64,000 nucleotides of DNA from an uncultured delta proteobacterium (lineage in GTDB: Bacteria > Desulfobacterota > Binatia > UBA9968): positions 10,256-74,255 of the forward strand of contig CAWJBB010000033.1 in NCBI GenBank assembly GCA_963840855.1. Reading direction: 5' to 3'. A program made the translations under genes and the position numbers. The notes beneath the pieces are model-generated. The model had not been told where the DNA came from, did not search any database, and saw nothing but the letters and a program-made list of their open reading frames with translations. This document shows positions 33,401 to 51,931 of the stretch, in pieces; position 1 is the stretch's first letter; the number at the start of each line of letters is the position of its first letter.

Positions 33401-34396
33401 TTAGATTCGCAAGAGGCGTTTGGCGTTTCCCTCAAGCAGAAGCAGCTTGTCGGTTTCCGAAATATCCAGCTGCTCGACCTTTTTGGCGGCGTCCCAGTCC
33501 CCTAAACCGTACGGATAATCGGTGCCAACCATGATGTGGTCGACGCCGCCGAGGCCGATCAGATACTTGATCGTGTCGAGGCGGTAGATCATGTTGTCGT
33601 AGTAAATGTTTTTTAGATACGCGCTGGGCGGCATCTTGGCTCCGGCGGCCCGCGCACCCGAGCGCACTTGCCATCCCCGGTCGAATCGACCCAGATGATA
33701 GGGAAAAAAGCCGCCACCGTGGAGAATGCAGAGCTTCAAGTTGGGGAACCGGTCGAACACGCCGCTGTAGGTCATGAAACCGAAGCAGAGCGCGCTGTCG
33801 GCGGGATTGCCGCATATGAGTTTCAAGCCATAAGGATTCATTTTGTCAGCGCCAGCGACGTCTTCCGGGTGCATAACCACCATGACATCCAGTTCTTGCG
33901 CTTTTGCCCAAAACGGATCGAACTCTTCGGTGCCATAGTAGTTGCCGTTGACGTTGGTGCCGATGTAGCCGCCGCGGAAATTAAGATCGCGGACGGCGCG
34001 CTCCAAGACCCTGGCGGCGCGCGCCGGGTCCTGCAGCGGTACGGAGGCCAAACCGACGAACTTGTCAGGATGGTGATTGATCAATTCGTAAATACCGTCG
34101 TTATAAACCTTGCACCAGTTTTCGCCCTGCTCGCCCGTGAGTCTGTAGCCGAGGGTGGCGGTGTGCGCTTCCAGCGCGGCCATGGCGAGCTTTGAGTCCT
34201 GCATCATCTTGAGCCGCTTGTCGATGGCCGGCAGCTCCGGATGAAGAACGAACGGCGGGCCGCCCGCGAAAGAAAGCGAGCGCTGTCCGTCTTTCTCGAT
34301 TAGCTCGACGCCAAGGTGTCTACCGCGGACTTTGGCTTCCTGCAAAAGACTTTCGGGAACGTAATGATGATGCACGTCGATGGCGCAAGTGTTCAT
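33401..34396 (-). CDS. amidohydrolase_2 family metal-dependent hydrolase/decarboxylase
   Basis: AIDVHHHYVP near the N-terminus and MVGTDYPYGLGD near the C-terminus. 331 aa. Confidence 0.85.
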   Translation of the reverse strand: MNTCAIDVHHHYVPESLLQEAKVRGRHLGVELIEKDGQRSLSFAGGPPFVLHPELPAIDKRLKMMQDSKLAMAALEAHTATLGYRLTGEQGENWCKVYNDGIYELINHHPDKFVGLASVPLQDPARAARVLERAVRDLNFRGGYIGTNVNGNYYGTEEFDPFWAKAQELDVMVVMHPEDVAGADKMNPYGLKLICGNPADSALCFGFMTYSGVFDRFPNLKLCILHGGGFFPYHLGRFDRGWQVRSGARAAGAKMPPSAYLKNIYYDNMIYRLDTIKYLIGLGGVDHIMVGTDYPYGLGDWDAAKKVEQLDISETDKLLLLEGNAKRLLRI

Positions 34397-34456
34397 TTTG
34401 GCCTAGATCCCTCTTTCGGAAATTTTAATTATCGATAATCGTCGCCCTCACCCTAA

Positions 34457-34477
34457 CCCTCTCCCCGCGGGAGAGGG
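34457..34477. repeat. REP-like GC hairpin between D-aminoacylase and amidohydrolase genes
   Basis: ccctctccc-cgc-gggagaggg (9-bp stem), embedded in ctcaccctaaccctctccccgcgggagagggaagg. Confidence 0.6.
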
Positions 34478-34539
34478 AAGGATGAGAGAAGAACTTTTAA
34501 CGAGCAGGAAACGAAGTGTTCGCCGAGCGGACCAGCTAG

Positions 34540-36201
34540 TTACACGCACAGTTGTTGGCGACGCACCTTGCCGGGGAAAACATCGTTGCAACTGCCGTCC
34601 TCGACTACAGTTTGGCCGTTGACGACCACGGCTTTCATCCCGGGCGGGTGCCGCTTGACTTCTTGAGCGTCAATGACGGCTGGCAGCTTCTCGCTGACTA
34701 AATCGTCGATCTTGTCGGCGTCAAAAATCGTCACGTCCGCGGGCATGCCTTCGCGCAGCAGACCGCGGTTGAGGCGAAGCTTCTCAGCCGGGAACCCGGT
34801 CACCTTGTGCACCGCTTTCTCCAGGCTCATCAGATGCTTCTCGCGACTCCAGTAGCCGAGCACTCTGACCGGGGCGCCATGCCAGAAGAAACGGTCGAGA
34901 TGCGCGCCCACGTCGGTGCCGATCAAACTGGTTTCCGACTGAATCATCTGCGCCAGAATATCCTGATGGGCATTGGCGAGGCCGTGATAGACGCACTGGG
35001 ATTTGAGATTGTCCTCCAGCCAGGTATCGAAGAACGCGTCCACCTCGGCCTTCTCGGTGAGCCGCGCGATTTCCGCGACGTTCTTGCCTTCGAGCTTTTT
35101 GAGTTCCGGTTTCTCGATATGTTCGAAAACCATGCGGTCCCAAGAATGCCATTCGGGAAATTCCGGTTTGCCGGCTCCCGCAATGCGTTCTTGTTCGAGT
35201 TTTTTTCTGATTTCTTTGTCCCCGAGCTTGCTGCTGAGGTCGCTCGAGTTCTTGATCGCTTCCCAGGTCGGCAGGCCGTTCAAGAAAAAGCAGTCGTTGA
35301 TGGTAAAGCGGCGGATGTGAGTGTAGGGGATGACGACGCCGAAGAGCTGTTGGCCGCGCTTCTGCGCTTCCTCCATGTAGGCGATGGCCTTCGGGGCGTC
35401 TGCCTTTTGTCCGGGACGCTGGCGAAATTCGTTGCCGATCTGCAAGCCGCGAATGCGTTTTAGCATGTCGGGAACGCCACTCTCGGGCTGGAGCATCATC
35501 TGAAAGCCGTTGAATTGAAAGCAGCCGTTGTATTCCGCCGCTACGTTGGCCAGCTCGACGATCTCGTTATGATTGGCGAAGGTGCTCGGCGTGCCGGCGT
35601 GAATCGCGGGTCCGCCGCGCGGACTGGTGGAAAATCCGATGGCGCCCAGCTCCATCCCTTCGCGCACCATTTTTTTCATCGCATCGAGTTCCTCCGGTTT
35701 TGCTTCGCGCTCATAGGCGGCTTCGCCCATGACCGTAAGCCGAACCGGGGAATGGGGCATGAGAGGAAGGCAGTTCACGGCGATATGGCCTTCAATATAA
35801 TTGAGATATTCGGCGTAGGTGTTCCACTTCCAGTCCTTGTCGTCGACATACTTATCCAGCACGCGGCGCAGATACTCGACCAGCACCTTGCGTGGCTCGG
35901 GCTTGGCTGGCACCGGCGCGCAGGAGGCGCCGCAATCGCCGATGACGATGCTGGTGACGCCGTAATTGACCACCGGATTGCCGTTTGGATACTGGACGAT
36001 GAAGGCGTCCATGTGGGTGTGGGAGTCGATGAATCCGGGCGCCACTACATGTCCTTTGGCGTCGATCTCTTTCTTTCCCGAGCCAAGGTTTTTGCCGATG
36101 GCAGTGACTTTTTCGCCGTCGATGGCGACATCGGCTTCGAAGCCTGGGCTTCCACTGCCGTCAATAACGGTGCCGTTTTTAATTACCAAATCGTGAGCCA
36201 T
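34540..36201 (-). CDS. N-acyl-D-amino-acid deacylase (D-aminoacylase) family amidohydrolase
   Basis: DLVIKNGTVIDGSG...VAPGFIDSHTHMD..., 553 aa, with the typical composite beta-sandwich plus TIM-barrel architecture. Confidence 0.85.
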   Translation of the reverse strand: MAHDLVIKNGTVIDGSGSPGFEADVAIDGEKVTAIGKNLGSGKKEIDAKGHVVAPGFIDSHTHMDAFIVQYPNGNPVVNYGVTSIVIGDCGASCAPVPAKPEPRKVLVEYLRRVLDKYVDDKDWKWNTYAEYLNYIEGHIAVNCLPLMPHSPVRLTVMGEAAYEREAKPEELDAMKKMVREGMELGAIGFSTSPRGGPAIHAGTPSTFANHNEIVELANVAAEYNGCFQFNGFQMMLQPESGVPDMLKRIRGLQIGNEFRQRPGQKADAPKAIAYMEEAQKRGQQLFGVVIPYTHIRRFTINDCFFLNGLPTWEAIKNSSDLSSKLGDKEIRKKLEQERIAGAGKPEFPEWHSWDRMVFEHIEKPELKKLEGKNVAEIARLTEKAEVDAFFDTWLEDNLKSQCVYHGLANAHQDILAQMIQSETSLIGTDVGAHLDRFFWHGAPVRVLGYWSREKHLMSLEKAVHKVTGFPAEKLRLNRGLLREGMPADVTIFDADKIDDLVSEKLPAVIDAQEVKRHPPGMKAVVVNGQTVVEDGSCNDVFPGKVRRQQLCV

Positions 36202-36278
36202 TAGGAGCGCCTCCTTATGCAGGTAAGATTAATTTGCTTATCCCACCGAATGGGTTCGGCTGTCAACTGCTTGATATC

Positions 36279-36477
36279 CAGTTCCTAGTTTCGAGTTTCT
36301 GGTTTCAGGTTAATCGGATCGCGGACGTATATCCGTCCGCGTAAATCGTCGTGTTACGAATCTCAGTAGTTGAGACTGTTATAGGAGTGGTCTCTAAAGT
36401 GGGCTGATTTGAAACTAGAAAGTCTCGAGCTCCGAGACTTGGCTGGACAGAAACTAGAAACCAGAGACTAGAAACTT
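36279..36477. repeat. CTAGAAAC-type inverted-repeat element in the tctA/D-aminoacylase spacer (related copy at 56513-56620)
   Basis: Left arm ccagttcctagtttcgagtttctggtttcagg. Roughly 100-nt core containing the hairpin gcggacg-tatatc-cgtccgc (36321-36340). Right arm gaaactagaaag...cagaaactagaaaccagagactagaaact. Confidence 0.8.
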
Positions 36478-36485
36478 CCCCTGGT

Positions 36486-37988
36486 CTACACCGCGTCTGC
36501 AGGCCGCTCGTATTTGGCTTTGCCCATGCGCTCTTTGATCGTAGGATAAGCGATGGTAAAAATCGTGATCGCGATGAGCGACAAGCACGCTGGGAAACAA
36601 GCAGCCACTTGGCGCCATAGGCCGCGGTGGATATCCATAAATAATTTTCCGCGATCTTACCCAGGGTAAGCCCCAGTATCAGCGGCGGCCGCGGCCAGCC
36701 AAATTTGACCATGAAATAGCCGATCACTCCGAAAAGAATTGTCGTTATGTTATCGTTGATATCGTTATTCGCGGTGAAAGAGCCGATGAAAACGAGGAAC
36801 ATCAAAAAGGGTATCAGTATCGAACCACGAACGAATGTGAGAGCAGCGAGATGATTCAAAAACATAAAGCAAATACCGGCGACGATGATATTGGCGATAA
36901 TCAGCACCCAAACCATGGCGAAGGTGACGTCGAGCTTGGATTTGAGCATTTCCGGTCCAGGGTTGAGTCCGACGATCAACATGGCCCCGAGGAGCAGAGC
37001 CATGGCGCCGCTGCCCGGAATACCGAAGGCAATCGTTGGTATCAAATCGCCGCCCCGTGTTGAGTTGTTTGCACACGCGGGGCCGAGCAGGCCTTCGATG
37101 GCGCCCTTGCCGGCTCTCGATTTGTCTTTTAATCCCTGCACCGCGTGGGCGTAGGAAATCCACTGGGCCACGTTGGCGCCCAAAACCGGTAGAACCCCAA
37201 AGTACACGCCGATCAAACTGCAACGCATGACCAGCCAGAAGTGGCGGAAGGTGTCTTTGACCCCTTCCATGACGCCGGTTATTTTTCCGGTCTGGCCGCC
37301 CGCAATGCTCGTGCCGCGCACCGCGAGATCGACGATTTCCGGTATGGCGAACAACCCCACGACAACCGGTATTAGATCGAGCCGGTCCCATAAATAAAGC
37401 GATCCGAAGGTGTAGCGCAAAGATCCCGTTTGCGGGTCTACGCCGATGGCGGCGAGCATAAGTCCGAGGCCGCCGGCAAGAAGCCCTTTGATCAACGACG
37501 GTCCGGCAAGCGTTCCGATAAACGTAATGCCCATGATCGCGATAATGAACAATTCCGGGTGAGCCGAACAGCAATACGAGGGGACGCATAATAGGAATGG
37601 AGAGGGCTAGTGAGAATGCTCCGATCAGGGATCCCAGCACGGAGCTTGTTATCGCCGCGCCCAAGGCGCGGCCGGCCTCGCCATTTTTAGACATGGGGTA
37701 GCCATCTAATATGAGCGCGGCGGAGGATCCCTCCCCTGGAATCCCGAAAAGAATCGACGTCAGGTCGCCGGTGGTGCCGGTGACGGCGAGCATGCCGAGC
37801 AGAAAGCAGAAGGCTTCGATGGGAGTTTTGATCGTATATGAGAACGGCAACATCAACGCGAGGGTTGACAGGCCGCCGATGCCGGGAAGCAGGCCGACCC
37901 AAAAACCGATGAAGATCCCCAGCAGCATATATCCGAAAGCCGGCCAGGCGAGAACTTTCCAAAACCCGATAACGAAGGCTTCAAGCAT
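36486..37988 (-). pseudogene. tctA: tripartite tricarboxylate transporter permease TctA, two frame breaks (as assembled)
   Basis: AGGAG RBS, ATG at 37988. TctA-type sequence reads through three frames: MLEAFVIGFW...LLFGSP | ELFIIAIMGITFIG...YGAKWLL | ..ACLSLIAITIFTIAYPTIKERMGKAKYERPADAV*. The shifts are at about 37555 (CC/GGG run) and about 36591-36603. The true stop is TAG at 36486-36488. Confidence 0.9.
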
Positions 37989-38138
37989 ATGAAACTCCTA
38001 ACGCTCTATTCGACCTGTGGACCATGCTCCATATCGCATCTTGAACCGTGGGTCAACCGATTCAGGCCAGGGAGTAATGGAGTTATGCACTTAAAATCAA
38101 TGGCGTCTTGATTGAGGCCGACGTTCCACGACAATATG

Positions 38139-39233
38139 CTACTTGCTCAAGATCCGCTTGAGCGCGGCGGTCACGTCGGGCGGCTGATTGACGATTTCCT
38201 TTGCCAGCGATTCAAGCTCCTCGCCCGCGACCGGCCCGGCCTCCCAGCCGCGCTTCTTTAGCTCATCGTTAAATGCAGGGTCCTTAAACATTTTCGTCCA
38301 GGCCTGGCGCAGAATGTTGACTCGTTCTGCGGGTACGCCCGGTGTCGAAACAATGGGCCGCGAACCAAAGCCCCACAGACCCAGATAGGTCGTGATCAAA
38401 CGCCGCTTGGAGTCGGAAATTTTGTATCGCTCCATCAATTCGAAAACAGTCGGTACGTCGGGAATTTTGGGGTGACGTTTCTCTTCGGTCTGGAGGAGAA
38501 TCCGGACGAAGCCCTTCTTGTGCCAGGTCAAGAATGGTTCGCGGCCGAAGAACCCTTCTATCGTGATGGCGCGGCAGTTAACTTCGCCGCGTTCCATGGC
38601 GAGATCTTGTTCGGAGCCGCCGGGATAGCCGCTTACGACGTTGAATTTCAGCCCAAGAGCGTCTTGCAGCAGACGTGGCAGGTCGTAGCCGGTGCTACCC
38701 ACGCCCGTGGCCGAGCACTTCGGCGGATCGTTGGTGTCGCGCAAATCATCCAAGGACTTAAACGGCGCGTCAGAGCGGATATACAGGAGATGTCCGCCGC
38801 GGTCAGGCGTGCCGATCCAGCTGAATTTCGGCCAGTCGAACTGGACTTCCTTGCTCCCGGTTATTTGCGCAATGATCAGTGCGCCGCCGATCGCGCCCAG
38901 GGTAAGCCCATCGGGCTTGGTGACGTTATAAACATGATTCGCCGCAATCATCGCGCCGGCGCCGGGCATGTTCTGGACGACGAACTCCGGATTTCCCGGA
39001 ATGTGTTTTCCGAGAAAACGGGCATAGGTGCGTGCCCATTGATCGTGGTTGTCGCCGGGCTGGTAGCCGACGATCACGCGCAGCGTCTTACCTTGGTAAA
39101 AATTCGCTTGCGCGAATGCTGGTTCAAGGTTCAAGGGGTTCAAAAGTCCAAAAGTTAGAAATCCGAAAACAGAAAGAACCTTGAACAGGTGAACCTTTGA
39201 ACATTTGAACGAATCGTTGAGCGGATAGTTCAT
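38139..39233 (-). CDS. TctC/Bug family substrate-binding protein (array paralog A)
   Basis: Signal peptide MNYPLNDSFKCSKVHLFKVLSVFGFLTFGLLNPLNLEPAFA|QANFYQGKT. Motifs VVQNMPGAGAMIAANHVYNVTKPDGLT, FDWPKFSWIGTP, PPKCS...GEVNCRA. Confidence 0.85.
   Translation of the reverse strand: MNYPLNDSFKCSKVHLFKVLSVFGFLTFGLLNPLNLEPAFAQANFYQGKTLRVIVGYQPGDNHDQWARTYARFLGKHIPGNPEFVVQNMPGAGAMIAANHVYNVTKPDGLTLGAIGGALIIAQITGSKEVQFDWPKFSWIGTPDRGGHLLYIRSDAPFKSLDDLRDTNDPPKCSATGVGSTGYDLPRLLQDALGLKFNVVSGYPGGSEQDLAMERGEVNCRAITIEGFFGREPFLTWHKKGFVRILLQTEEKRHPKIPDVPTVFELMERYKISDSKRRLITTYLGLWGFGSRPIVSTPGVPAERVNILRQAWTKMFKDPAFNDELKKRGWEAGPVAGEELESLAKEIVNQPPDVTAALKRILSK
39121..39210. repeat. GTTCAAGG-type inverted repeat inside the signal-peptide coding region of paralog A
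   Basis: Arms ggttcaaggttcaaggggttcaaaagtccaaaag (39121-39154) and accttgaacaggtgaacctttgaacatttgaac (39178-39210), with a 23-nt loop. Confidence 0.85.
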
Positions 39234-39254
39234 AACGGCCTCACTTTTGTCAAA

Positions 39255-39652
39255 TTTATTTGCTCAAGAGTTTTTTCAGCCATTCGATCACTTCCGGTGG
39301 TTGATCGATCACTTCCTTGGCGTGGATTTGGCCATCGAACGAGGCGAGGCGCAATGCCCGCCATCACTATTGCGGCGTTTTTGGCGACGTTGTAGACATG
39401 GCATTGGACGCGATTCGTGGCCGGATTGCCAGGAATATGTTTCCCCATGCTGCGGGAATAGGCGCGCGCAAAAAGATCGTGCGTATCGCCGGGTAGATTG
39501 CCAACGACGATGCGAATGGTTTTGCCATGGTAAAAATGCTTGCGCGAATACTCGTTCAAGGTTCAAGGGTTCAAGAGTTCAAGGGTCAGAACGGAGAAGA
39601 GTCCGAGAACCTTGAACCCTTGAACTTTTGAACTCTTGAACTGGTTTGCCAT
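39255..39652 (-). pseudogene. internally deleted, frame-broken remnant of a TctC/Bug paralog (A-like)
   Basis: ATG at 39652 (4 nt after the stop of paralog B) gives MANQFKSSKVQGFKVLGLFSVLTLELLNP. Then ..HFYHGKTIRIVVGNLPGDTHDLFARAYSRSMGKHIPGNPA, a short HVYNVAK piece, and a C-terminal ..ASFDGQIHAKEVIDQPPEVIEWLKKLLSK* in another frame. About 690 nt of a roughly 1.09-kb gene are missing. Confidence 0.7.
39554..39642. repeat. GTTCAAGG-type inverted repeat at the 5' end of the TctC remnant
   Basis: gttcaaggttcaagggttcaagagttcaagggt (39554-39586) / accttgaacccttgaacttttgaactcttgaac (39609-39642). Confidence 0.85.
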
Positions 39653-39655
39653 TTC

Positions 39656-40738
39656 TCATTCGCGCCCGAGCACCCACTTCATACGCTCGATGATTTCACG
39701 GGGCTGGGTCATGACCTCCTTGGACAGGCTCTGCAGCTCTTCGCCTTTTGTTGGATCGACCTCCCATCCCTGTTTGGCGGCTTCGCCCAGCAGATCTGGA
39801 TCGGCGATGGCTTTTGCATAGGCGTCGCGAAGAATCTTAACGCGGTCGGCGGGGGTGCCGGGAGCGGCGCCAATGGGGCGGCCAAGGGTGGCGGCGGTCA
39901 AAATAACTTTGGCGAGACGGCGGCCGGCCTCGGAAGTCTTGTACTGCTGCATCAGCTCGATCAACGTGGCAGTGTCCTTCAGCCGTGGATCGCGCTTTGC
40001 GCCGGTTTGCAGCATGACGCGCACATAGCCGGATTTATGCCAGCGTCTGTACGGCTCGCGGCCAAAATAGGTTGCGAGCAGCGGCGACCAGCAGATGACT
40101 TCATTGCGCTCAATGGCCAATTCAATATCCGGAGCCCCCGGGTAGCCGCTGACGATCTGAGTTTTGATGCCGAGAGTTTCTTCCAGGAGTCTGGGAATAT
40201 AGTGGCCAGTGCTGCCCGTACCCGTGCTGCCGCATTTGGCCGGCTCTTTCGCGTTACGTAAATCGTCGATGGTTTTGAATGGCGCGTCGGCGCGAATGTA
40301 ATGGACGATGTCGTTCTTTTCCGGCGAGCCGATCCAGTTAAATTTTGTCCAATCGAATTTCACTTCGGGTCTGCCCACCAGTTGATCGAAATAGAGCGCA
40401 GGGTTGACAGCCCCAAGGGTCAACCCGTCGGGTTTGGCAACGCCATACACGTAATTGGCGCCGATGATGTTCCCGGCTCCAGGCATGTTCTGCACCACGA
40501 TCGACGGGTGTCCCGGGATGTACTTGACGATGTGACGCGCCGTGAGACGCGCCCAGAGATCGTAACCGCCGCCGGTGGTCGAAGCGACGACCAGCGTGAG
40601 GGTTTTGCCCTGATAGAAGGGTGTCTGGGCAGACGCCCGTTCAATGTTCAAGGGGTTCAAGAGTCCAAGCGCCAGGACAAAGAAGAGTCCGATAACATTG
40701 AACGCTTGAACCCTTGAACTTTTGAACGCCTTAGGCAT
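39656..40738 (-). CDS. TctC/Bug family substrate-binding protein (array paralog B)
   Basis: MPKAFKSSRVQAFNVIGLFFVLALGLLNPLNIERASA|QTPFYQGKT. Motifs VVQNMPGAGNIIGANYVYGVAKPDGLT, FDWTKFNWIGSP, PAKCG...NEVICWS. Confidence 0.88.
   Translation of the reverse strand: MPKAFKSSRVQAFNVIGLFFVLALGLLNPLNIERASAQTPFYQGKTLTLVVASTTGGGYDLWARLTARHIVKYIPGHPSIVVQNMPGAGNIIGANYVYGVAKPDGLTLGAVNPALYFDQLVGRPEVKFDWTKFNWIGSPEKNDIVHYIRADAPFKTIDDLRNAKEPAKCGSTGTGSTGHYIPRLLEETLGIKTQIVSGYPGAPDIELAIERNEVICWSPLLATYFGREPYRRWHKSGYVRVMLQTGAKRDPRLKDTATLIELMQQYKTSEAGRRLAKVILTAATLGRPIGAAPGTPADRVKILRDAYAKAIADPDLLGEAAKQGWEVDPTKGEELQSLSKEVMTQPREIIERMKWVLGRE
40639..40727. repeat. GTTCAAGG-type inverted repeat inside the signal-peptide coding region of paralog B
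   Basis: gttcaatgttcaaggggttcaagagtccaag (40639-40669) / acattgaacgcttgaacccttgaacttttgaac (40695-40727). About 26 of roughly 31 positions pair by hand alignment. Confidence 0.85.
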
Positions 40739-40745
40739 CCTTTAC

Positions 40746-41840
40746 TTACTCCCGTCCGATAACCCATTTCATTCGATCGATCACATTTTGCGGCTGACTC
40801 ACGACCTCTTTGGCCATGCCATCGAGCTCGTCGCCGGTGAGCGGGGCCAGTTCCCAGCGCCGTTTCTTCACCTCGGCCAAAAGCTCCGGATCATTCATGG
40901 TAGCGACGTAGGCCTGCCGCAAAAGCTTCACACGCTCCGCCGGCAGCGCGGGCGGCGCGACGATGGGACGGCCCAGGGTGGCGGCTGTTAAGACCACCCG
41001 CGCGAGGCGCTTGCCCGCCTCCGGGGTTTTATACTGGTCCATCAACTCGTAAATGGTTGGCACGCTTTCCAGCCGCGGGTCACGCTTTCTGCCCATTTGA
41101 ACTAGCACGCGTACGAAGCCTTTCTTGTACCAACTCATGTAAGGTTCGCGTCCGAAGAAGGTTGCGATGAGCGGCGACCAACAGATGACTTCCCCTCGTT
41201 CCACGGCCAGATCGATTTCCGTTCCGCCCTGGTAACCACCGACGATGGTGTGCTTCAGTCCGAGTGTTTCTTCGAGAAGTCGCGGTATGTAATGGCCGGT
41301 GGTTCCCGTTCCTGAACTACCGCACCGAGGTGGTTCCTTGGCCGTCCGAATATCTTCCACGGTTTTATACTGTGAGTCGGCGCGCATGTAATGGAGCGGT
41401 TCGTTCTGTTCGGGAGAACCAATCCAGGTAAACTTAACCCAGTCGAATTTGATTTCTGATCGGCCCACCAACTGATCGAAATAGAGCGCGGGAAGAATTG
41501 CGCCAAGCGTAAGTCCGTCGGGTTTGGCTAAGTTATAAATCTGGTTCGCGGCAACGACGGAGCCCGCGCCTGGCACGTTCTGGACGACAATCTCCGGATT
41601 GCCGGGAATATGCTTGCCGTAATAGCGAGCGAGCAAGCGCGCCCATAGATCATATCCACCGCCGGTTGAGGAGCCGACGACGAGCTTGATGGTCTTGCCT
41701 TGGTAAAAAGGCGTCTGGGCAGACGCCAGTTCAAGGTTCAAGAGGCTCAAGAGTTCAACGACAGAAAAGGCAAGGACTCCGAATACCTTGAACCTTTGAA
41801 CTTTTGAACTCTTGAACCCGTGGAGCGGTGACCTTTCCAT
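40746..41840 (-). CDS. TctC/Bug family substrate-binding protein (array paralog C)
   Basis: MERSPLHGFKSSKVQRFKVFGVLAFSVVELLSLLNLELASA|QTPFYQGKT. Motifs VVQNVPGAGSVVAANQIYNLAKPDGLT, PPRCG...GEVICWS. Closest to B. Confidence 0.88.
   Translation of the reverse strand: MERSPLHGFKSSKVQRFKVFGVLAFSVVELLSLLNLELASAQTPFYQGKTIKLVVGSSTGGGYDLWARLLARYYGKHIPGNPEIVVQNVPGAGSVVAANQIYNLAKPDGLTLGAILPALYFDQLVGRSEIKFDWVKFTWIGSPEQNEPLHYMRADSQYKTVEDIRTAKEPPRCGSSGTGTTGHYIPRLLEETLGLKHTIVGGYQGGTEIDLAVERGEVICWSPLIATFFGREPYMSWYKKGFVRVLVQMGRKRDPRLESVPTIYELMDQYKTPEAGKRLARVVLTAATLGRPIVAPPALPAERVKLLRQAYVATMNDPELLAEVKKRRWELAPLTGDELDGMAKEVVSQPQNVIDRMKWVIGRE
41729..41817. repeat. GTTCAAGG-type inverted repeat inside the signal-peptide coding region of paralog C
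   Basis: gttcaaggttcaagaggctcaagagttcaa (41729-41758) / ccttgaacctttgaacttttgaactcttgaac (41786-41817). Confidence 0.85.
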
Positions 41841-41886
41841 GAATAGTATCAGCCTCCGTGCTCCGATCTAATCACCATTGCCGGTT

Positions 41887-42919
41887 CTACATCCCGATCA
41901 GTTTTTTTACTTTCTCCACGATGTCCGGCGGGGTGGTCATGACTTCTTTGGCAAGCTTGTCGAGTTCCTCGCCGGCGGCCGGGTCGATATCGAGCCGGCG
42001 CCTTTCCGCCTCAGCCAAGAAGGCCGGATCACTGATCGTCTTGTTAAACGCGTCGCGCATGATCTTCACTCGGTCCGCCGGTACGCCCGGAGGGAAAACC
42101 ATGGGCCGGCCAAACTCGTCGGACGCCACCACGACCTTTACGAGGCGCCGAACATTTTCGGAGGTCTTATACTTGTTCATCAGCTCGTCGAACAACGGCA
42201 CGTCTTTAAGCCTTGGGTCGGGGCTGCCGCCCGTCTGGTAAAGCACGCGAACGAAGTTTTTCTTGCGCCAGGTAATAAACGGCTCACGCGAAAAAAAGGC
42301 ATTGATGGTAAAAGCCCGGCAAACGACTTCGCCGCGCTCCACGGCGAGGTCGATGTCCGATCCCGCGACATACCCCGAGACGATGTCGAACTTGGTGCCA
42401 AACGCATCTTCCATGAGCTTTGGCATATAATACGCCGACGAGGTGACTCCGGTTGCGCCGCACTTGGGCGGACTGGACGCAGTTCGAATATCTTCGATCG
42501 TCTTATAGGGCGCGTCGGCGCGCATGTACATGAGACTCTTCGAGCTTACCGGACTGCCAATCCAGATAAACTTACTCCAGTCGAATTTGGCCTCCGGCCG
42601 CTTGGCGAGTTGCTCGAAGTAGAGCGCGGGATAAATCGCGCCGAGGGTTAGACCGTCAGGTTTGGCGATATTGTAAACCTGATTGGTGCCGATCAATCCC
42701 GCCGCGCCGGCCACGTTTTGAATGATGATGTTTGGGTTTCCCGGAATGTGCTTGGGCATGAATTCCGCGACCAGGCGCGGGTAAAGGTCATAGACGTCGC
42801 CCGGCTTGGCGGCCGCTATTATCGTGACAGTCTTACCCTGATAGTAGGGAGTCTGGGCGGATACACTTGGAGACCCACGCGACGAACAAAAGCAGAAAGT
42901 AGATGACGCTCCGATGCAT
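41887..42919 (-). CDS. TctC/Bug family substrate-binding protein (array paralog D), frame break within the signal-peptide codons (as assembled)
   Basis: GAGGAG RBS plus the ATG at 42919 gives MHRSVIYFLLLFVAW.. in one frame. The mature part ..SVSAQTPYYQGKTVTIIAAAKPGDVYDLYPR... is in the +1 frame (track ORF 41887..42942). Removing one G/C at about 42874-42876 restores MHRSVIYFLLLFVAWSPSVSA|QTPYY. Confidence 0.8.
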
Positions 42920-42963
42920 AAAATCTCCTCTTGATGATTCACTCGACGAGCCCGTTTAATTCT

Positions 42964-43992
42964 CTATGTCCCTAATAATTTTTTCATTCGTTCAATGACT
43001 TCCGGCGGTTGTGCGACAATCTCTTTTGCCAAAGCTTCCAGTTCTTCGCCGGGAACCGGATCCAGGTCCAATCGTTTCTTCTTGGCGTCGTCCAAAAGGT
43101 CCGGATCGCGCACGGACCTCATGAAGGCCTCACGGAGAATTTTCACCCGGTCCGCTGGGATACCCGGAGTCGCGACGATGGGACGGCCAATCTCGTTGGC
43201 GGCCAAGATCACCGCAGCCAAGCGGCGCGCGGAATCGGCGGTTTTGTGTTGGTCCATGAGTTCATGGAGAGTTGGAACCTCAGGCAAATTAGCGTCCCGT
43301 TTCTTGCCGGTTTGAATGATTACACGAACAAAACCTTTCTTACGCCAGGTGTGGAAAGGCTCGCGGGCAAAGAAGGCGGCGATCGTGAAGGCGCGGCATT
43401 GTACCTCGCCTCGCTCTACGGCCAGGTCGACATCCGTGCCGGAGTTGTAACCGGTAACGATGTTGAATTTCGCCCCGATGGTCTCTTCCAAGAGCTTGGG
43501 CAGGTAGTAGGCAGATGAAGCCGTGCCTTCGGCGCCGCACTTGGGCGGCGTGGAAGCTTTGCGGATATCCTCGACGGTTTTATAGGGAGTGTCGCTCCTC
43601 ATGTAGAGCAGATGATGCGACACGGTGGTGTTGCCGATCCAGGTAAACTTTTGCCAGTCGAACTGGACCTCCTTCCGTCCGACGAGCTGATCGAAGTAGA
43701 GCGCGGGTTGGATTGACCCGATGGTGAGGCCATCAGGCTTGGCTACCCCGTAGATGTAATTGGCCGCAACCATGGAGGCCACGCCCGGCATGTTTTGCAC
43801 GATGACATTCGGAGTGCCGGGAATATGTTTTGGGATGAACTGGGCAACCAGGCGCGCATAGAGATCATACACACTGCCCGCTGGGGTACCGGCCACAAGC
43901 CGAATGGTTTTACCCTGGTAGAAGGGGGCCTGCGCGTGAAGGCTAAAGGGCCACAGTAACACGACGAGAAAAATGAAAAAGCTCGAAAACAT
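42964..43992 (-). CDS. TctC/Bug family substrate-binding protein (array paralog E)
   Basis: MFSSFFIFLVVLLWPFSLHA|QAPFYQGKT. Motifs IVQNMPGVASMVAANYIYGVAKPDGLT, PPKCG...GEVQCRA. GAAGGTGG RBS. Confidence 0.9.
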   Translation of the reverse strand: MFSSFFIFLVVLLWPFSLHAQAPFYQGKTIRLVAGTPAGSVYDLYARLVAQFIPKHIPGTPNVIVQNMPGVASMVAANYIYGVAKPDGLTIGSIQPALYFDQLVGRKEVQFDWQKFTWIGNTTVSHHLLYMRSDTPYKTVEDIRKASTPPKCGAEGTASSAYYLPKLLEETIGAKFNIVTGYNSGTDVDLAVERGEVQCRAFTIAAFFAREPFHTWRKKGFVRVIIQTGKKRDANLPEVPTLHELMDQHKTADSARRLAAVILAANEIGRPIVATPGIPADRVKILREAFMRSVRDPDLLDDAKKKRLDLDPVPGEELEALAKEIVAQPPEVIERMKKLLGT

Positions 43993-44195
43993 GAAACGGC
44001 CACCTTCTTTCCATACGCAACCGCAGGCTGGTTACCCTCAGTTGTGCCGTGACGTCACTGGGTCGGCGTCTCGACAGGGTAGTCAACGGCTCGTCAATCA
44101 CCCAAAAGTTTGCGCCTCCGCCGGAAATTTGGCCGGAGCATATCCCTCAAGGCTGCCAGGTTGCAACAACCCCGAGGGATTGCCGGTGAAATTTC

Positions 44196-45234
44196 CTATT
44201 TTCCGCCCAGTAACTTCTCCATACGCTGTACGACGTCAGGGGTTGCCGCCATGACCTCTTTTGCCAAGGCCTCGATCTCCGCGCCGGTCGCCGGATCCAT
44301 TTCCAGGCGGCGCTTTTCGGCCGTCGCCAAAAGCGCCGGATCGCTCACCGACTTGTCGAACGCGTCACGCAGTATTTTCAGCCGGTCCGCCGGAACTCCG
44401 GGAGCGGTAACCAGGGGGCGGCCAAACTCGCCGGCGGACAAAACGACTTTTGCCAGGCTTCTTCCGGCGGCCGTCGTTTTATACCGGTCCATCAATTCGT
44501 AGATTGTCGGCGCTTCCTTGAGACGGGCGTCGCGTTTGGCGCCGCTCTGCATCAGAGTGTTGACGAAACCGCGCTTGCGCCAGGAAATGAACGGCTCCCG
44601 GGCGAAATAGGCGGTGATCGTAAAGGCGCGGCAAACCACCTCGCCGCGCTCGACGGCGAGATCCACATCTTGACCGGACTGATAGCCTAACACGATGTCG
44701 AATTTCGTTCCGAGGGTTTCTTCCATGAGTTTGGGCAGGTAATAGCCGGTGGAAGTAATACCGTTGGAGCCGCACTTGGGCGCCGCCGAGGCATTACGGA
44801 TATCATCCATCGATTTATAAGGAGCGTCCGACCGCATATATAATAAGTGGTTCGAGGTGACCGGATTGCCGACCCAGCCGAACTTGGTCCAGTCGAATTT
44901 GGCTTCGGGCTTTTTCGTGAGCTGCTCGAAATAGAGCGCCGGGTAGATGGCGCCGATGGTCAAGCCATCCGGTTTGGCGACGTTGTAGACCTGATTGGCC
45001 GCGATCATCGACGCGGCGCCCGGCACGTTCTGGATAATGATATTCGGATTGCCGGGAATGTATTTCGGCATGAACTCAGCGAGCATGCGCGGGTACAAGT
45101 CATAGGCGTCGCCGGCTTTGGTGCCAACAATAATTGTTATCGTTTTTCCTTGATAAAATGGGGTCTGAGCCTGGGCATGGCCGGCCACGGCAGCTTGCCA
45201 TCAGGATTATTAGAGCGACCAACAAACAATGCAT
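44196..45234 (-). CDS. TctC/Bug family substrate-binding protein (array paralog F), frame break within the signal-peptide codons (as assembled)
   Basis: AAGGAGG RBS plus the ATG at 45234 gives MHCLLVALIILMAS.. in one frame. ..VAGHAQAQTPFYQGKT... is in the +1 frame (track ORF 44196..45188). Removing one base at about 45195 restores MHCLLVALIILMAAAVAGHAQA|QTPFYQ. Confidence 0.8.
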
Positions 45235-45288
45235 TTCGATACTTCCTCCTTAAAAGATTTTCGACCGAACTTTAACATGTTAAAAAAT

Positions 45289-46296
45289 TTATAACCCACT
45301 AATTAATTCGAGTATTTTTTTCACCCGTGCCAGGACATCCGGCGGTTGCTGCAAAATTTGCTGAGCGAGTTTTTCCAAATGCGCGCCGCTCGTAGGATCG
45401 ACATCCATTCTTTGCTTCCGCGTCTCGGCGAGCAGTTCGGGATCTTTCATGGACTGATCGAAGGCCCGCCGCAGCATTTCGACGCGCTCCGCCGGCGTCC
45501 CCGGACCGGAAATAATCGGCCGTCCGAAGGACTCGGCCGCGAGGATCACCTGGGCAACGCGGCGACTGTTCTCGGGCACGTTTTCTTTGTCGAAGATCTC
45601 CGCGATGGTCGGTACATCAGGGATTCTTTCATCACGCTTGGCGCCGGTATAGAGCAGGATTCGAACAAAGTTTTTCTTTTGCCAACTCAAGAACGGCTCG
45701 CGTCCGAAGAAGGGCGACGCGGTCATGCCACGGCACATGACTTCGCCTTTTTCGACCGCGATGTCGATCTCGGACCCGCCGGGATATCCTAAAACAGTAT
45801 TGATTTTTAGAGGCGGCAAGGTGTCCTCCAACATGCGCGCCAGGATGAAATCGGTGCTGACTGTTCCTGTAGAGCCGCATTTGGGCGGCTCTTTGGCGTT
45901 TTTCACGTCCGAGATGGTCTTGTAAGGACTGTCGGCGCGCATATAAAGAATCATCGGTTCCATGACCGGAGAGCCTATCCAGGCGAACTTGCGCAGGTCG
46001 AACTTCACTTCAGGCCGGCCGACGAGTTGGTCGAGATAGAGGCCGCTGCTTGGAAAACCGATGGTCAAACCGTCGGGTTTGGCGACGTTGTAGACGTAAT
46101 TGGTCGCTACGACGGAACCCGCGCCGGGCATATTCTGCACGATGAAACTCGGATTGCCTGGGATATACTTCGGCATGAAGCGCGACAGCAGGCGCGCCCA
46201 ACGATCGTAAAACCCTCCGGTGGTAAAGCCGACCACAACCCTGACCTGTTTGCCTTGGTAAAAGGGAGCGGCTGGGCGTGAACGTGGAAGAGCCAA
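45289..46296 (-). CDS. TctC/Bug family substrate-binding protein (array paralog G), N-terminus without an in-frame signal peptide
   Basis: The mature sequence AAPFYQGKQVRVVVGFTTGGFYDRWAR... is intact. Upstream, an RBS plus ATG (MNRSIWAS.., about 46321) and a ..LWLFHVHAQ piece lie in the two other frames. At least one frame break or a degraded leader. Confidence 0.7.
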   Translation of the reverse strand: MALPRSRPAAPFYQGKQVRVVVGFTTGGFYDRWARLLSRFMPKYIPGNPSFIVQNMPGAGSVVATNYVYNVAKPDGLTIGFPSSGLYLDQLVGRPEVKFDLRKFAWIGSPVMEPMILYMRADSPYKTISDVKNAKEPPKCGSTGTVSTDFILARMLEDTLPPLKINTVLGYPGGSEIDIAVEKGEVMCRGMTASPFFGREPFLSWQKKNFVRILLYTGAKRDERIPDVPTIAEIFDKENVPENSRRVAQVILAAESFGRPIISGPGTPAERVEMLRRAFDQSMKDPELLAETRKQRMDVDPTSGAHLEKLAQQILQQPPDVLARVKKILELISGL

Positions 46297-46510
46297 AGCT
46301 CGCCCAAATAGACCGGTTCATTTGTGCTCCCTGCTCGCATGGGTGCTCGGCCTGGTCGAGATGATTCGGATTGGATCTCGACGGCCGGCGGGTACGAGTG
46401 CGATTGACGTAAGCCTCGCGGAGGGTGACGCCAAGATGAACTGCTGATTAGACTAAGAGATCGCCATGTCGATGCAACTCCATTTCATTCGTCTGGTTTT
46501 CGTCACGACC

Positions 46511-47542
46511 TTATTCGGCGAGAACTTTTTTGACCCGCTCCATGACATCGCTCGGCTGGTTCATGAGTTCTTTCATCAGAACTTGTAGCTCTTCGCCGGG
46601 CGTATACTCCATATCCATCTGGCCCTTTTTCGCTTCTTCGATAAGGCCGGGATCTCTCATGGCTTTGGCATAGGCATCCCGCAGCATCTTCACTCGATCC
46701 GGCGGGTTGCCCGGGCCAGCCACCATCGGCCGGCCAAATTCTCCGCCCGCCAAAACGATGCGCGTTACGCCGCGCATAACTTCTGGAGTCTTATATTGGT
46801 CCATGAGTTCGAAGAGCGTCGGTGCATCGCCCATGCGCGGATCGCGCTTCGGTCCGCCTTGGAGTAGGTGACGGTCGAAGCCCTTCTTGTGCCAGGTCTC
46901 GAACGGCTCGCGGCCAAAGTGAGGAGGGATGTCCATGCCCCGGCAGACGATTTCACCGCGCTCCACCGCGACGTCGATCTCGCTGCCGCCCTGATATCCC
47001 GTCACCGTGTTGAGCTTTGCCTTGAAAGCTTCGTCCATGAGTCGCGCGATAAGATAGCCCGTACTGGCTGTCCCCGTCGAGCCGCATTTGGGCGGTTCGC
47101 TGGCTTTAATGATATCCGCAACGGTCTTGAACGGACTATCGGCGCGGAAATAGAGCATCGTCGGCGCCTTTTCCTGGGTGCCGATAAATTCAAATTTGCG
47201 CATGTCGAACTTGACTTCTTTACGGCCGACGATTTGATCGAGGTACAAGCTATTGATCGGCACCAACAAGGTCAGACCGTCGCTTTTGGCCAGGTTGTAA
47301 ACATAGTTGGCCGCGATCACCGAACTCGCCCCAGGCATGTTTTGCACGACGAAGTTGGGGTTTCCGGGTATGTATTTTGGCATATAGCGCGACAGCAGTC
47401 TCGCCCAGCGGTCGTAGAAGCCTCCGGGCGTAAAACCGACGATAACTCTAACGGTCTTATCCTGGTAGAACGGCGTGGCTTGAGCCCGAAGGAACGAGGC
47501 GGAGGAAACGATCAAAAAGACGACGAGGATTAGAGTGCCCAT
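46511..47542 (-). CDS. TctC/Bug family substrate-binding protein (array paralog H)
   Basis: MGTLILVVFLIVSSASFLRA|QATPFYQDKT. Motifs VVQNMPGASSVIAANYVYNLAKSDGLT, PPKCG...GEIVCRG. AGGAGGG RBS. Closest to G. Confidence 0.9.
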   Translation of the reverse strand: MGTLILVVFLIVSSASFLRAQATPFYQDKTVRVIVGFTPGGFYDRWARLLSRYMPKYIPGNPNFVVQNMPGASSVIAANYVYNLAKSDGLTLLVPINSLYLDQIVGRKEVKFDMRKFEFIGTQEKAPTMLYFRADSPFKTVADIIKASEPPKCGSTGTASTGYLIARLMDEAFKAKLNTVTGYQGGSEIDVAVERGEIVCRGMDIPPHFGREPFETWHKKGFDRHLLQGGPKRDPRMGDAPTLFELMDQYKTPEVMRGVTRIVLAGGEFGRPMVAGPGNPPDRVKMLRDAYAKAMRDPGLIEEAKKGQMDMEYTPGEELQVLMKELMNQPSDVMERVKKVLAE

Positions 47543-47725
47543 TAGCCCTCCTGACTTTTCCTATCTAGCATGCTCCCGGCAGTCCTATTCATCGGTCACC
47601 CGCGTTGAGGCGGGAAGAACTTCTGGATTAAGCCGGTGAATGCTTGTGGCAAAATGAGTTGACAAAGGGGAATTGCCGGATCGCGTGTGATGCGAGTTAA
47701 CGCCGTTTGCACGCTGCTATGAATT

Positions 47726-48214
47726 TTATTCCCATCCAAGCCAGGCAAAGATGCGCCCCTCGGGAAAGGGCAGTGTAAGGAGCTTTACGAACAGCAACCA
47801 AAAAACGCCATAGGCAAGCGCCGTCAAACCGATGGACAGGCCCCATGACTCCTTCGATTGAATTTTGAGGTACGTAAACATCATTACGACAATGCTGATA
47901 GGGAATCCCACAAGCCAAACCCCGAGCAAAAAGCAAAAAAACCAGGTAAACATGACAATAGCCCGCTTTTTTGCCAGCGCCGGATCAATGTCTTTGGTAA
48001 ATTGAAAATCCATCGGCGTGCCGTCGGATGTTTGCTTGGGCTTATATCCTCTTAAATCCAGAACGACCTGGATAACGGCCAAGATCACCATCGGGAAGCC
48101 GATGGCCCAAGGGTAAAGCCTGGCCTGGAGTCGCCAATCCTGGGCGACGTAAACCCAAACGATAAAAAATATTAGTGCGCAAATACTAAAAATCGCCGGC
48201 CCTCTGATTTTCAC
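47726..48214 (-). CDS. tctB: tripartite tricarboxylate transporter small membrane subunit TctB
   Basis: 162 aa, 4 TM helices, with TctB-like features (..RLYPWAIGFPMVILAVIQV.., ..GFPISIVVMMFTYL.., ..LPFPEGRIF). GTG start 13 nt after the amidohydrolase stop, preceded by AGGAAGGA. Confidence 0.75.
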   Translation of the reverse strand: MKIRGPAIFSICALIFFIVWVYVAQDWRLQARLYPWAIGFPMVILAVIQVVLDLRGYKPKQTSDGTPMDFQFTKDIDPALAKKRAIVMFTWFFCFLLGVWLVGFPISIVVMMFTYLKIQSKESWGLSIGLTALAYGVFWLLFVKLLTLPFPEGRIFAWLGWE

Positions 48215-48227
48215 GATGTTATCCTTC

Positions 48228-49259
48228 CTATACGGCCCAGCCGTAGAGTTTCATGGCGTTGGCGCGCGTGATCTTAGCTTTCTGCTGGTCTGATATATCC
48301 GTTCTGCCGCGCACTGTCGATACCATATAGGGAAAATTACCGTCCCAGTGGGGATAGTCGGAGGCGAACAGTATCACATCTTCGCCGGCCTTTTCCAGAA
48401 CATACGGGAGCGTGTTTTCTTCCGGCTCGGTGGCGTAGAACCAGTTGCCAGCGGTCATATACGCGCTCGGCTTTTTCTTCAATAGCGGCGCCTCGGATTG
48501 GCGCTTCTCCCATTCTTCATCCATCCGGTCCATCCAGTAGGGCACCCAGCCGCAACCGCATTCCAAAAAGGCGATGCGCAGGTTGGGAAACTTTTCCGGC
48601 ACTCCGCCATAAACCAGCGCCGCGCAGTCGATAAAGGTTTCGAAGGGACGCCCAATGGTGTGGCGGAATAAAAAAGTGTCGAAGCGGATTTCCCCCGCGG
48701 GCCCCTGGCGCGAGTTGTGAATCAACAGCGGCGCGTTGAGCTTCTGTAACTCTTCATAGATCGGCCAGAACAGGGGCTGGCCGATATGTTCTTTCAGCCC
48801 AAAGGTGCCGACCGCGATGCCCACAAGGCCGAGCTTGGTTATCGCCCGCTGGGCTTCTTTGCACGCGGCATCGACATCTTGAAAGGGGACGAGGCCCACG
48901 GCTTTTAGGCGCGGGCTTTCGGCGCAGACTGACGCAACCCAATCGTTGTAACCGCGGCAGTAAGCGGCGGCATAGTCTCTCTCCGGTGTTTGCGTGATGC
49001 CAAAACCGCTGGTTGGAAACAAGACTGAAATGTCGATGCCCTCTTTGTCCATATCGCGCAGCCGGGTCGGCACGTCGTCAACTTGCAAGCCGAGCTTGCC
49101 AAACATGCTGGAGTCCCAGACATCGTTTGGCAAAAGTCCGCCCTGGCGGCGGCAATAGGGCTCAGCCATAAACTTGCGAATATCCGAGTCACGGTCGCGC
49201 ACATGACCGTCGGCGTCGATAACTCTCACGTCTGCCAAATTTGGGACTGCCATGACCAT
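48228..49259 (-). CDS. amidohydrolase_2 family metal-dependent hydrolase/decarboxylase (first gene of the TTT operon-like block)
   Basis: VIDADGHVRD near the N-terminus and LFASDYPHWDG near the C-terminus. 343 aa. Confidence 0.85.
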   Translation of the reverse strand: MVMAVPNLADVRVIDADGHVRDRDSDIRKFMAEPYCRRQGGLLPNDVWDSSMFGKLGLQVDDVPTRLRDMDKEGIDISVLFPTSGFGITQTPERDYAAAYCRGYNDWVASVCAESPRLKAVGLVPFQDVDAACKEAQRAITKLGLVGIAVGTFGLKEHIGQPLFWPIYEELQKLNAPLLIHNSRQGPAGEIRFDTFLFRHTIGRPFETFIDCAALVYGGVPEKFPNLRIAFLECGCGWVPYWMDRMDEEWEKRQSEAPLLKKKPSAYMTAGNWFYATEPEENTLPYVLEKAGEDVILFASDYPHWDGNFPYMVSTVRGRTDISDQQKAKITRANAMKLYGWAV

Positions 49260-49412
49260 CTCCTTCGAATACTATCGGATTTACCCAGGCTCCACAGGTT
49301 TCGCTATACCGCGCCACCGATTACCATACGACACGATTGAAGGTCAATGGCGATTTACCCTTTTTCACTGGATGCAACTGTGGTAAATGGGCTCCAAGCA
49401 TCGAGAGTCATC

Positions 49413-50609: not shown

Positions 50610-50702
50610 ATAGGCGAGAGGCGAAAGGCGGTAGGCGTGAGAGTCGACGGAAAAGCGTGCGTTGCCCTAGAACTCATGCCTGTTGCCTCTCGCCTCACGC
50701 GC
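50610..50702. repeat. GGCGTGAGG-type inverted repeat filling the ACAD1/ACAD2 spacer
   Basis: aggcgagaggcgaaaggcggtaggcgtgagag (left, 7-nt period GGCGNNA) / ctcatgcctgttgcctctcgcctcacgc (right). Confidence 0.8.
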
Positions 50703-50713
50703 TGAATTCTTTT

Positions 50714-51819: not shown

Positions 51820-51830
51820 AAAATTTTTAA

Positions 51831-51914: not shown

Positions 51915-51931
51915 GACTGAAAGGAGCTAAG

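Follow-up and report, generated by a model that had tools for sequence, protein, structure and literature searches.

A Binatia transporter locus with eight divergent TctC genes between tctB and tctA

Known tripartite tricarboxylate transporters and the Binatia locus

Characterised tripartite tricarboxylate transporters (TTT) are encoded in tctCBA-type operons with one binding-protein gene, or with the binding-protein genes as orphans away from tctAB (PMC5812351). Here we describe a TTT locus in a 64,000-nucleotide stretch of DNA (the window; assembly GCA_963840855.1, contig CAWJBB010000033.1, positions 10,256 to 74,255) from an uncultured soil bacterium of the Binatia, in which eight TctC-type binding-protein genes lie between tctB and tctA, the genes for the small and large membrane subunits. 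Based on gene layout and sequence comparison, we consider it fairly probable (about 0.6) that this is the TTT operon of a Binatia-type bacterium in which one TctB plus TctA translocator is co-encoded with eight specialised binding proteins. Like the citrate operons tctCBA (bctCBA) of Salmonella, Bordetella and Corynebacterium, the locus consists of genes of families PF01970, PF07331 and PF03401 in one orientation, and binding-protein-dependent secondary transport is presumed for it as for them. It differs from these operons in its order (B-C...C-A), in having eight binding-protein genes instead of one, in the 9.7 kb that separate tctB from tctA, and in that no tctDE-type two-component genes are adjacent in the window; its TctC proteins are ~20% identical to solved Bug proteins.

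Many diverged binding-protein paralogs, sometimes in tandem, with few tctAB cores are also found in Bordetella, Cupriavidus and Rhodoplanes (PMC5812351, PMC5994714). Those extra genes are mostly unlinked to tctAB, whereas the array in the window is nested in the operon and colinear between genomes. A preliminary description of this DNA had portrayed the many extra Bug genes of Bordetella or Cupriavidus as mostly scattered orphans, which leaves out that in Rhodoplanes as many as nine TTT binding-protein genes stand in tandem; tctAB belongs only to the 'standard operons' there (PMC5994714). A position between tctB and tctA is not described for the nine-gene Rhodoplanes array, and the closest relatives of its members are often elsewhere in the genome. 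The sharing of a core by several binding proteins, which had been called only hypothesised, also has better standing than that: TphC and IphC of Comamonas sp. E6 are encoded apart from tpiBA (PMC13040137), and according to a review, the membrane proteins of a TTT are able to interact with various binding proteins (PMC13040137, citing Hosaka 2013). A single core serving two or more binding proteins that differ in specificity, as in TpiBA with TphC and IphC (PMC13040137, PMC8556258), is the functional model that we propose for the window; the Comamonas binding-protein genes are located in separate catabolic operons, whereas those of the window are inside the core operon.

Among ATP-binding cassette (ABC) importers, one translocator with many receptors is represented by HisJ/ArgT with HisQMP and by multiple OppA genes before oppBCDF, and in some cases the binding-protein genes stand in tandem within the operon. 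These importers belong to another superfamily with another energy source, and their binding-protein genes precede the membrane genes instead of lying between them. Tandem arrays of TTT binding-protein genes and TctAB-type cores shared by receptors are already known. In a literature search we found no paper with tctC between tctB and tctA, in agreement with the preliminary claim of an undescribed architecture, and no paper combining Binatia with TctC. The layout is real, lineage-wide and apparently undescribed; its parts are known and its mechanism is presumably the same.

The array, its paralogs and the reading frames

Based on the open reading frame (ORF) listing and Pfam scans of the window, every gene from 49259 down to 33401 is on the minus strand, with spacers of -4 to 284 nt. 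The order is Amidohydro_2, tctB, TctC H, G, F, E, D, C, B, a remnant, A, tctA, Amidohydro_3 and Amidohydro_2, as in the preliminary description, whose gene order and coordinates all hold for this block. Between the amidohydrolase genes, it contains the following features, for some of which we also used hidden Markov models (HMMs) of our own.

47726..48214, minus strand: tctB, small membrane subunit, 162 aa; Pfam PF07331, 45.7 bits (cut-off 29.1), positions 2-137 of 137
46511..47542, minus strand: TctC paralog H, 343 aa; Pfam PF03401, 56.9 bits; intact signal peptide, ...FLRAQA followed by TPFYQDK
45289..46296, minus strand: TctC paralog G; Pfam 65 bits; mature part intact, upstream signal-peptide region (~46297-46400) out of frame
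44196..45188, minus strand: TctC paralog F; Pfam 44.9 bits; mature part intact, signal peptide MHCLLVALIILM... one frame off (~45189-45245)
42964..43992, minus strand: TctC paralog E, 342 aa; Pfam 49.3 bits
41887..42942, minus strand: TctC paralog D, 351 aa; Pfam 38.7 bits
40746..41840, minus strand: TctC paralog C, 364 aa; Pfam 57.2 bits; long signal peptide, its coding region spanning the hairpin 41717-41829
39656..40738, minus strand: TctC paralog B, 360 aa; Pfam 55.4 bits; long signal peptide, its coding region spanning the hairpin 40634-40739
39230..39655, minus strand: TctC remnant (ninth TctC); tblastn and own TctC HMM (positions 20-91)
38139..39233, minus strand: TctC paralog A, 364 aa, last member of the array; Pfam 48.8 bits; degraded hairpin in the signal-peptide region
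36486..37988, minus strand: tctA, large membrane subunit, 1503 nt; Pfam TctA in two frames; three 1-nt insertions
36420..36440, minus strand: candidate terminator-like hairpin with a weak T tract, 46 nt past the tctA stop (consensus scan)

All eight TctC ORFs scored above the 27-bit cut-off of PF03401 (38.7-65 bits), and with the TctB match and the TctA match after frame correction (see below) the assignment of the three subunits was borne out. Judged by these low Pfam scores, the eight are divergent members of the family. The sequence of paralog H matched BugE, 4X9T, Bug27, AdpC and TphC (E 3e-11 to 1e-6). Structure prediction (AlphaFold2, AF2) was done for paralog H alone among the eight; the model had a predicted local distance difference test (pLDDT) score of 88, and TTT binding proteins made up all of its top 17 Foldseek matches in the PDB (target-normalised TM-scores 0.69-0.81, ~20% sequence identity). 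In this model, paralog H has the two-lobed Bug/TctC fold.

In Bug proteins, two pincer loops (beta1-alpha1 and beta7-alpha6) grip the carboxylate of the ligand via water molecules; the corresponding loops of the array align with those of BugE (PFAPGGSTD and GSSGT). They keep the cores G..D and CG..G..S/T and vary by class, with class-specific sequences such as FTPGGFYD, TKAGDAYD, TPAGSVYD, SSTGGGYD and YQPGDNHD; within an orthogroup, most loop positions are at least 90% conserved. Loops that are distinct between classes and conserved within them form the pattern expected of receptors with different ligands. A comparison of structures and pincer loops had been suggested for all eight paralogs; the fold was predicted for H, and the loops of the classes, compared by sequence, turned out to be class-specific.

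Pairwise identity among the eight paralogs is 47-66%, the most alike classes being F/D and C/B (65-66%). Positional orthologues in other genomes are 73-96% identical with their order kept, and the ratio of nonsynonymous to synonymous substitution rates (dN/dS) relative to orthologues is 0.03-0.12 for every paralog. By class (related loci bear L numbers), identities and dN/dS are 86-95% and 0.07-0.12 for H, 81-89% (L012, L029, L033 and others) and 0.07-0.09 for E, 80-88% and 0.05-0.10 for D, and 89% (L003) or 76% (L007) and 0.07-0.09 for A. Orthologues of F are up to 95% identical (dN/dS 0.03); G showed dN/dS of 0.07-0.08; C has a 96% identical orthologue in L010 and B a 92% identical one in L064. 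By these measures, the paralogs are old and under purifying selection. All eight look functional and differentiated in sequence, as a hub with many receptors would require. Flanked as they are by tctB and tctA, they are not Bordetella-type orphans; the only orphans are the extra TctC-like genes at 9166-10254 and 58965-60002. We ruled out an assembly artefact, or a collapsed or expanded repeat, as the origin of the array, because paralog DNA is only ~60-70% identical and the layout recurs in independent assemblies.

Inspected by eye, five paralogs (H, E, C, B and A) carry a hydrophobic N-terminal segment that ends in AxA or AQ directly ahead of a conserved PFYQGK; the signal segment of D is less typical. 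Reading in three frames placed the signal peptides of F and G out of frame. In tctA, the Pfam TctA match is divided between two frames within 36305-37988 as the sequence stands. Compared with tctA DNA of L003 and L001, the gene showed exactly three gaps, which are 1-nt insertions at 37556, 36601 and 36579; outside them, nucleotide identity is 89% (L003) and 82% (L001). Removal of the three bases gave a 499-aa TctA that matches PF01970 at positions 2-423 of 423 with 391 bits and is 95% identical to TctA of L003. Apart from the insertions, tctA has no stops or other damage, and the 95% amino acid identity extends across the frame segments.

Frame breaks also occur next door, in the genes for a second acyl-CoA dehydrogenase (ACAD2), a thiolase and an OB-fold protein. 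In the window, these are at least two breaks in ACAD2 (50714-51834), one in the thiolase gene (52956-52969) and one in the OB-fold/DUF35 gene (53262-53305); the CoA-ligase gene (56629-58131) lies in five ORF pieces and is possibly frame-broken too. Compared with intact relatives, the broken catabolic genes are otherwise 57-100% identical per segment (in amino acids), and an indel frequency of about one per 2-3 kb is suggested for the part 50714-58131. Related loci from 'MFD' metagenome-assembled genomes (MAGs) on very long contigs are fragmented alike, and most short-read loci are not. Because same-type breaks hit conserved neighbour genes, tctA is otherwise intact and the 'MFD' MAG loci are fragmented alike, the breaks in tctA and in the F and G signal peptides are most likely assembly consensus errors rather than signs of gene death. 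The concern raised in the preliminary description, that the tctA breaks might be real, therefore probably does not apply.

The remnant at 39230-39655 had no Pfam match. Its ~115 N-terminal residues are 59% identical to residues 1-115 of L007_TctC6 (best match by tblastn), and its second part, in another frame, is the final ~25 aa of a TctC, ...AKEVIDQPPEVIEWLKKLLSK and stop. It carries a hairpin-type signal peptide, and ~230 aa are gone. By this comparison, the remnant represents a ninth TctC class that has truly lost an internal part here and is intact in L007; the earlier count of eight TctC genes plus a deleted remnant was correct.

Related loci and the weighing of explanations

The TctB of the window had 680 homologues; nearly all that carry a name come from Candidatus Binatia MAGs, and the best was 98% identical. 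In public assemblies, a search for this exact TctB sequence gave no record. Synteny was shared by three contexts found via exact protein match, in which 2, 5 and 7 tctC genes separate tctB from tctA. Employing a TctB-alignment scan with one genome per species, we obtained 80 loci, mostly labelled Binatia or, by an older label, 'Deltaproteobacteria'. The labels of other phyla on a few MAGs could be due to mis-binning or gene transfer. We annotated these loci using HMMs of our own. The order tctB-(tctC)n-tctA was found in nearly all loci with both genes on one strand, including 34 of 34 closed arrays in the tctB-anchored scan (the window among them), which are distributed as follows.

n = 0: 2 loci
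n = 1: 16 loci
n = 2: 5 loci
n = 3: 5 loci
n = 4: 1 locus
n = 5: 2 loci
n = 6: 1 locus
n = 7: 1 locus
n = 8: 1 locus (this window)

Seven open-ended loci have nine tctC genes inside the 10-kb flank with tctA not yet reached (n at least 9), and four further loci, anchored at tctA, have n = 0, 2, 5 and 7 in the same order. The order C-A-B was seen in only two distant loci (TctB identity 38-45%). The n = 0 relatives L019, L023 and L092 retain tctB and tctA, so the core persists without any binding protein co-encoded in the operon. Across dozens of genomes, the arrays stand in one orientation strictly between tctB and tctA, with no other transporter genes interleaved, and the flanking enzymes recur around them. 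Judged from these loci, the window is a large but not extreme case of a lineage-wide layout. The separation of tctB and tctA is thus typical of the lineage, as had been asked; the locus is not singular, since the whole TctB clade has it, n ranging from 0 to 9 or more. The possibility that this order is common and already catalogued was half right: it is common within the clade, but no catalogued description was found.

Three kinds of local variation were seen among the relatives. In L007, a sulfotransferase gene on the opposite strand (13161-14057) lies between the last tctC and tctA. In L083 and L090 (L090 5876-7405), an Amidohydro_3 gene lies between the fifth and sixth tctC. A tctB-tctC-tctC-tctA unit in L093 (7352-11494; GCA_040961595.1, JBFOND010000141.1) is flanked by RecA_N-domain and IMS-domain (imuA/imuB-like) genes, has an intein-containing DNA polymerase III alpha (dnaE2-like) gene as its other neighbour and an integrase gene adjoining, and looks like a unit inside a mutagenesis cassette.

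From one genome to another, the paralog classes keep their colinear order, an indication that the array is old and was subject to differential loss. Larger arrays hold extra classes beside H, G and F that are absent from the window, and TctC fragments are present also in L001 and L003. These observations fit an array that is old, comprised at least nine and probably about a dozen classes, and was trimmed differently in each lineage. A tctC gene would already have stood between tctB and tctA; old tandem duplications and divergence would have produced an array of at least nine classes, and later lineage-specific deletions would have left the remnant here and n = 0 to at least 9 in the relatives. 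Because single-tctC loci already have the order tctB-tctC-tctA, the nesting may be a by-product of duplicating the gene in place. The 9.7 kb of binding-protein genes noted in the preliminary description are there, but they need not have been inserted between the membrane genes. Against expansion from one copy stands a rooted neighbour-joining tree, in which the lone TctC of n = 1 loci clusters with class H and not outside all classes; on these sequences, reduction from a larger array appears equally possible.

According to the proposed working of the locus, the TctC proteins would be exported by their signal peptides, and each would hold a carboxylate ligand of its own between the two lobes. 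Once loaded, the TctC proteins would all dock on the same TctBA core, which would import the ligand driven by the membrane ion gradient. The imported acids would then pass to the adjacent amidohydrolase-type enzymes and to a divergent CoA-ligase/beta-oxidation-like cluster. It is plausible that all eight act on this TctBA, that they are co-transcribed, and that the substrates are related, probably aromatic or other organic acids.

Several points weigh against this proposal. We infer the physical and functional coupling of the eight TctC proteins to TctBA, as well as the single transcript, from the gene layout. Four spacers in the block measure 150-214 nt, and promoter- and terminator-like sites found across the region by consensus scan occurred at the level of shuffled sequence, a result that is uninformative for this phylum. 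The first ~115 nt past tctB, which look conserved among relatives, could represent an internal promoter or some other regulatory element before the first tctC. As the sequence stands, F and G are without an in-frame signal peptide, and if the tctA insertions were real, the translocator would be dead in this genome. For the three closest relatives, this stretch past the tctB stop was compared by eye (window 47600-47725, minus strand; L003 2170-2290; L010 3173-3290; example TTGTTAACTCATTTTGCCACA) and appeared more conserved than the remaining spacer.

Some or most of the arrayed proteins might not be receptors for this TctBA but sensors acting via a membrane kinase, or might serve other systems, their position being an accident of duplication. 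A gene for a hybrid PAS histidine kinase/response regulator (29658-32357) does lie 1 kb past the block and is syntenic in L001, and the n = 0 relatives indicate that the core does without local binding proteins; in Rhodoplanes, many TTT binding-protein genes adjoin genes of tripartite ATP-independent periplasmic (TRAP) or ABC transporters, not tctAB (PMC5994714). However, the PAS domains of the kinase are of cytoplasmic type, Pfam detected no periplasmic sensor domain in it, and the arrays are placed strictly between tctB and tctA, free of other transporter genes. We regard this explanation as unlikely.

About as doubtful, or slightly more so, is a decaying locus, in which the tctA breaks, the F and G signal-peptide breaks and the remnant would all be real lesions of a dying transporter island. 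The three insertions, the displaced signal peptides, the true internal deletion in the remnant and the partial or complete loss of the array in some relatives agree with it. The preservation of tctA across its frame segments does not, nor does the dN/dS of 0.03-0.08 for the mature parts of F and G; moreover, the 1-nt breaks in the unrelated conserved ACAD2, thiolase and OB-fold genes are typical of long-read consensus errors. We give even less credence to the idea that several binding proteins of (nearly) the same ligand were amplified for capture capacity. Binding proteins are usually needed in excess over the membrane subunits, and the resemblance within the pairs F/D and C/B could be counted in its favour; but the paralogs are at most 66% identical and are kept as separate orthogroups across genomes, and the ligand loops differ between classes while being conserved within them.

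One TctBA translocator with eight specialised receptors remains the reading that we prefer. In a speculative extension of it, which we think rather improbable, the Binatia locus would be an evolvable receptor bay, with one TctBA and up to a dozen co-transcribed, ligand-specialised receptors, their number being tuned to the habitat; palindromes in some of the signal-peptide coding regions (see below) would either adjust how strongly single receptors are expressed relative to one another, by RNA processing or translation control, or promote the gain and loss of cassettes through recombination. How TTT cores handle many binding proteins is poorly understood, and scattered Bug/TctC orphans are hard to assign to a core. 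With receptors and core in one co-oriented block, natural variants from n = 0 to at least 9 and clear orthogroups, these loci provide a defined test set for the docking of many receptors on one core, for surface residues common to the receptors and for divergence of specificity. They also point to a broad organic-acid scavenging trait in Binatia, an abundant uncultured soil lineage.

Palindromes in signal-peptide coding regions and neighbouring genes

Within the part that codes for the signal peptide, C, B and the remnant contain a ~100-nt palindrome of GTTCAARR octamers, and A contains a degraded one (minus strand, 41717-41829, 40634-40739, 39542-39653 and 39110-39214, respectively); the signal peptides of H, G, F, E and D are of the ordinary kind. 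Each palindrome is built of 3-4 direct octamers, a loop of ~25 nt and 3-4 inverted octamers, and the arms encode FKSSKVQxFKV and LLNPLNLE. The octamer pattern had 17 matches in the window compared with 0.06 expected. Predicted folding energies of the 150-160-nt 5' regions were -58 to -66 kcal/mol for C, B and the remnant and -35 kcal/mol for A.

In 21 of the related loci examined, duplicate contigs among them, certain tctC genes carry the palindrome at their 5' end (L007, L010, L017, L029, L040, L049, L064 and L084-L086 are included). Over 27 copies from several paralog classes and genomes, the hexamers are near-invariant despite three codon phases, indicating constraint at the nucleotide level. 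A covariation test of the hairpin (23 pairs) gave zero compensatory changes; with invariant hexamers, it neither supports nor opposes an RNA structure. An Rfam search of 33000-50000 returned a single chance-level match (mir-335, E 0.68). When metagenomes were scanned for the octamer, the hits were mainly tandem repeats of an unrelated kind and short palindromes between genes. Of 120 loci, just 2-3 lay at the 5' end of a TctC gene, and the octamer element is therefore not TctC-specific. Shorter GTTCAA palindromes with no long ORF across them, apparently non-coding, were seen in L104, L113, L115, L117, L126, L133, L196-L198, L202 and L206, and plain tandem GTTCAARR arrays in many other metagenome contigs. 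The TctC hairpins may derive from a family of repeats like repetitive extragenic palindromic (REP) elements. They could act in RNA processing, in translation control or as a recombination substrate, or could be a domesticated REP-like element. An integron-like cassette array, considered on account of palindromes between co-oriented genes, was rejected: the palindromes are inside 5' coding ends, and paralog order is colinear between genomes. No integrase was found among the genes examined around the array.

The genes bracketing the array and the other features discussed below are as follows.

48228..49259, minus strand: Amidohydro_2 gene, 343 aa, heading the co-oriented block; Pfam PF04909, 104 bits
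34540..36201, minus strand: Amidohydro_3 gene, D-aminoacylase-like, 553 aa; Pfam PF07969; best PDB match D-aminoacylase 1M7J, E 4.6e-42
33401..34396, minus strand: Amidohydro_2 gene, ACMSD-like, 331 aa; Pfam PF04909, 116 bits; best PDB match ACMSD, E 5e-48
49347..58131, plus strand: divergent CoA-dependent catabolic cluster (Pfam; tblastn and HMM mapping from relatives)
58965..60002, plus strand: distant TctC-like binding protein, 29% identical to H, ending the catabolic cluster; own TctC HMM, 170 bits
9166..10254, minus strand: orphan TctC of the same subfamily, 49% identical to H; Pfam TctC 49.4 bits, HMM 521 bits

The Amidohydro_2 gene at 48228-49259, separated by 13 nt from tctB downstream, has as best PDB matches the AibH-type amidohydrolase 6M1W (2e-30), DitZ and gamma-resorcylate decarboxylase. 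Together with the D-aminoacylase and ACMSD matches at the other end, these results agree with the preliminary statement that decarboxylase/hydrolase-type enzymes bracket the array. Many relatives have this Amidohydro_2 gene in the same position, and in many the Amidohydro_3 gene also follows tctA. The divergent cluster contains genes for two acyl-CoA dehydrogenases, an SCP-x-type thiolase, a DUF35/OB-fold protein, an NMT1-type binding protein, two enoyl-CoA hydratases and an AMP-forming CoA ligase, and the same cluster is beside tctB in most related loci. In an NCBIfam search, six neighbouring enzymes that matched something had no match above cut-off, so no substrate could be called, and both Amidohydro_2 proteins, the OB-fold protein and paralog H had no match. 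The distant TctC-like protein that ends the cluster had no Pfam match at E<=0.001 and has an 86% identical orthologue in L022. From these genes, the role is most sensibly read as follows: a set of related, perhaps aromatic, organic acids would be taken up, decarboxylated or hydrolysed, and broken down in a CoA-dependent manner.

By HMM search, the 64-kb window has a single tctA and a single tctB. The orphan TctC at 9166-10254 is neighboured by a UbiD decarboxylase gene and another Amidohydro_2 gene. A second organic-acid group (7277-8716, 9166-10254, 10687-11877, 17279-18400 and 18584-20215) comprises a UbiD-family decarboxylase, this orphan TctC, two further Amidohydro_2 proteins and a FAD aromatic-ring hydroxylase. 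A molybdenum hydroxylase is also encoded in the window. The gene content hints at aromatic acids among the substrates of this genome region.

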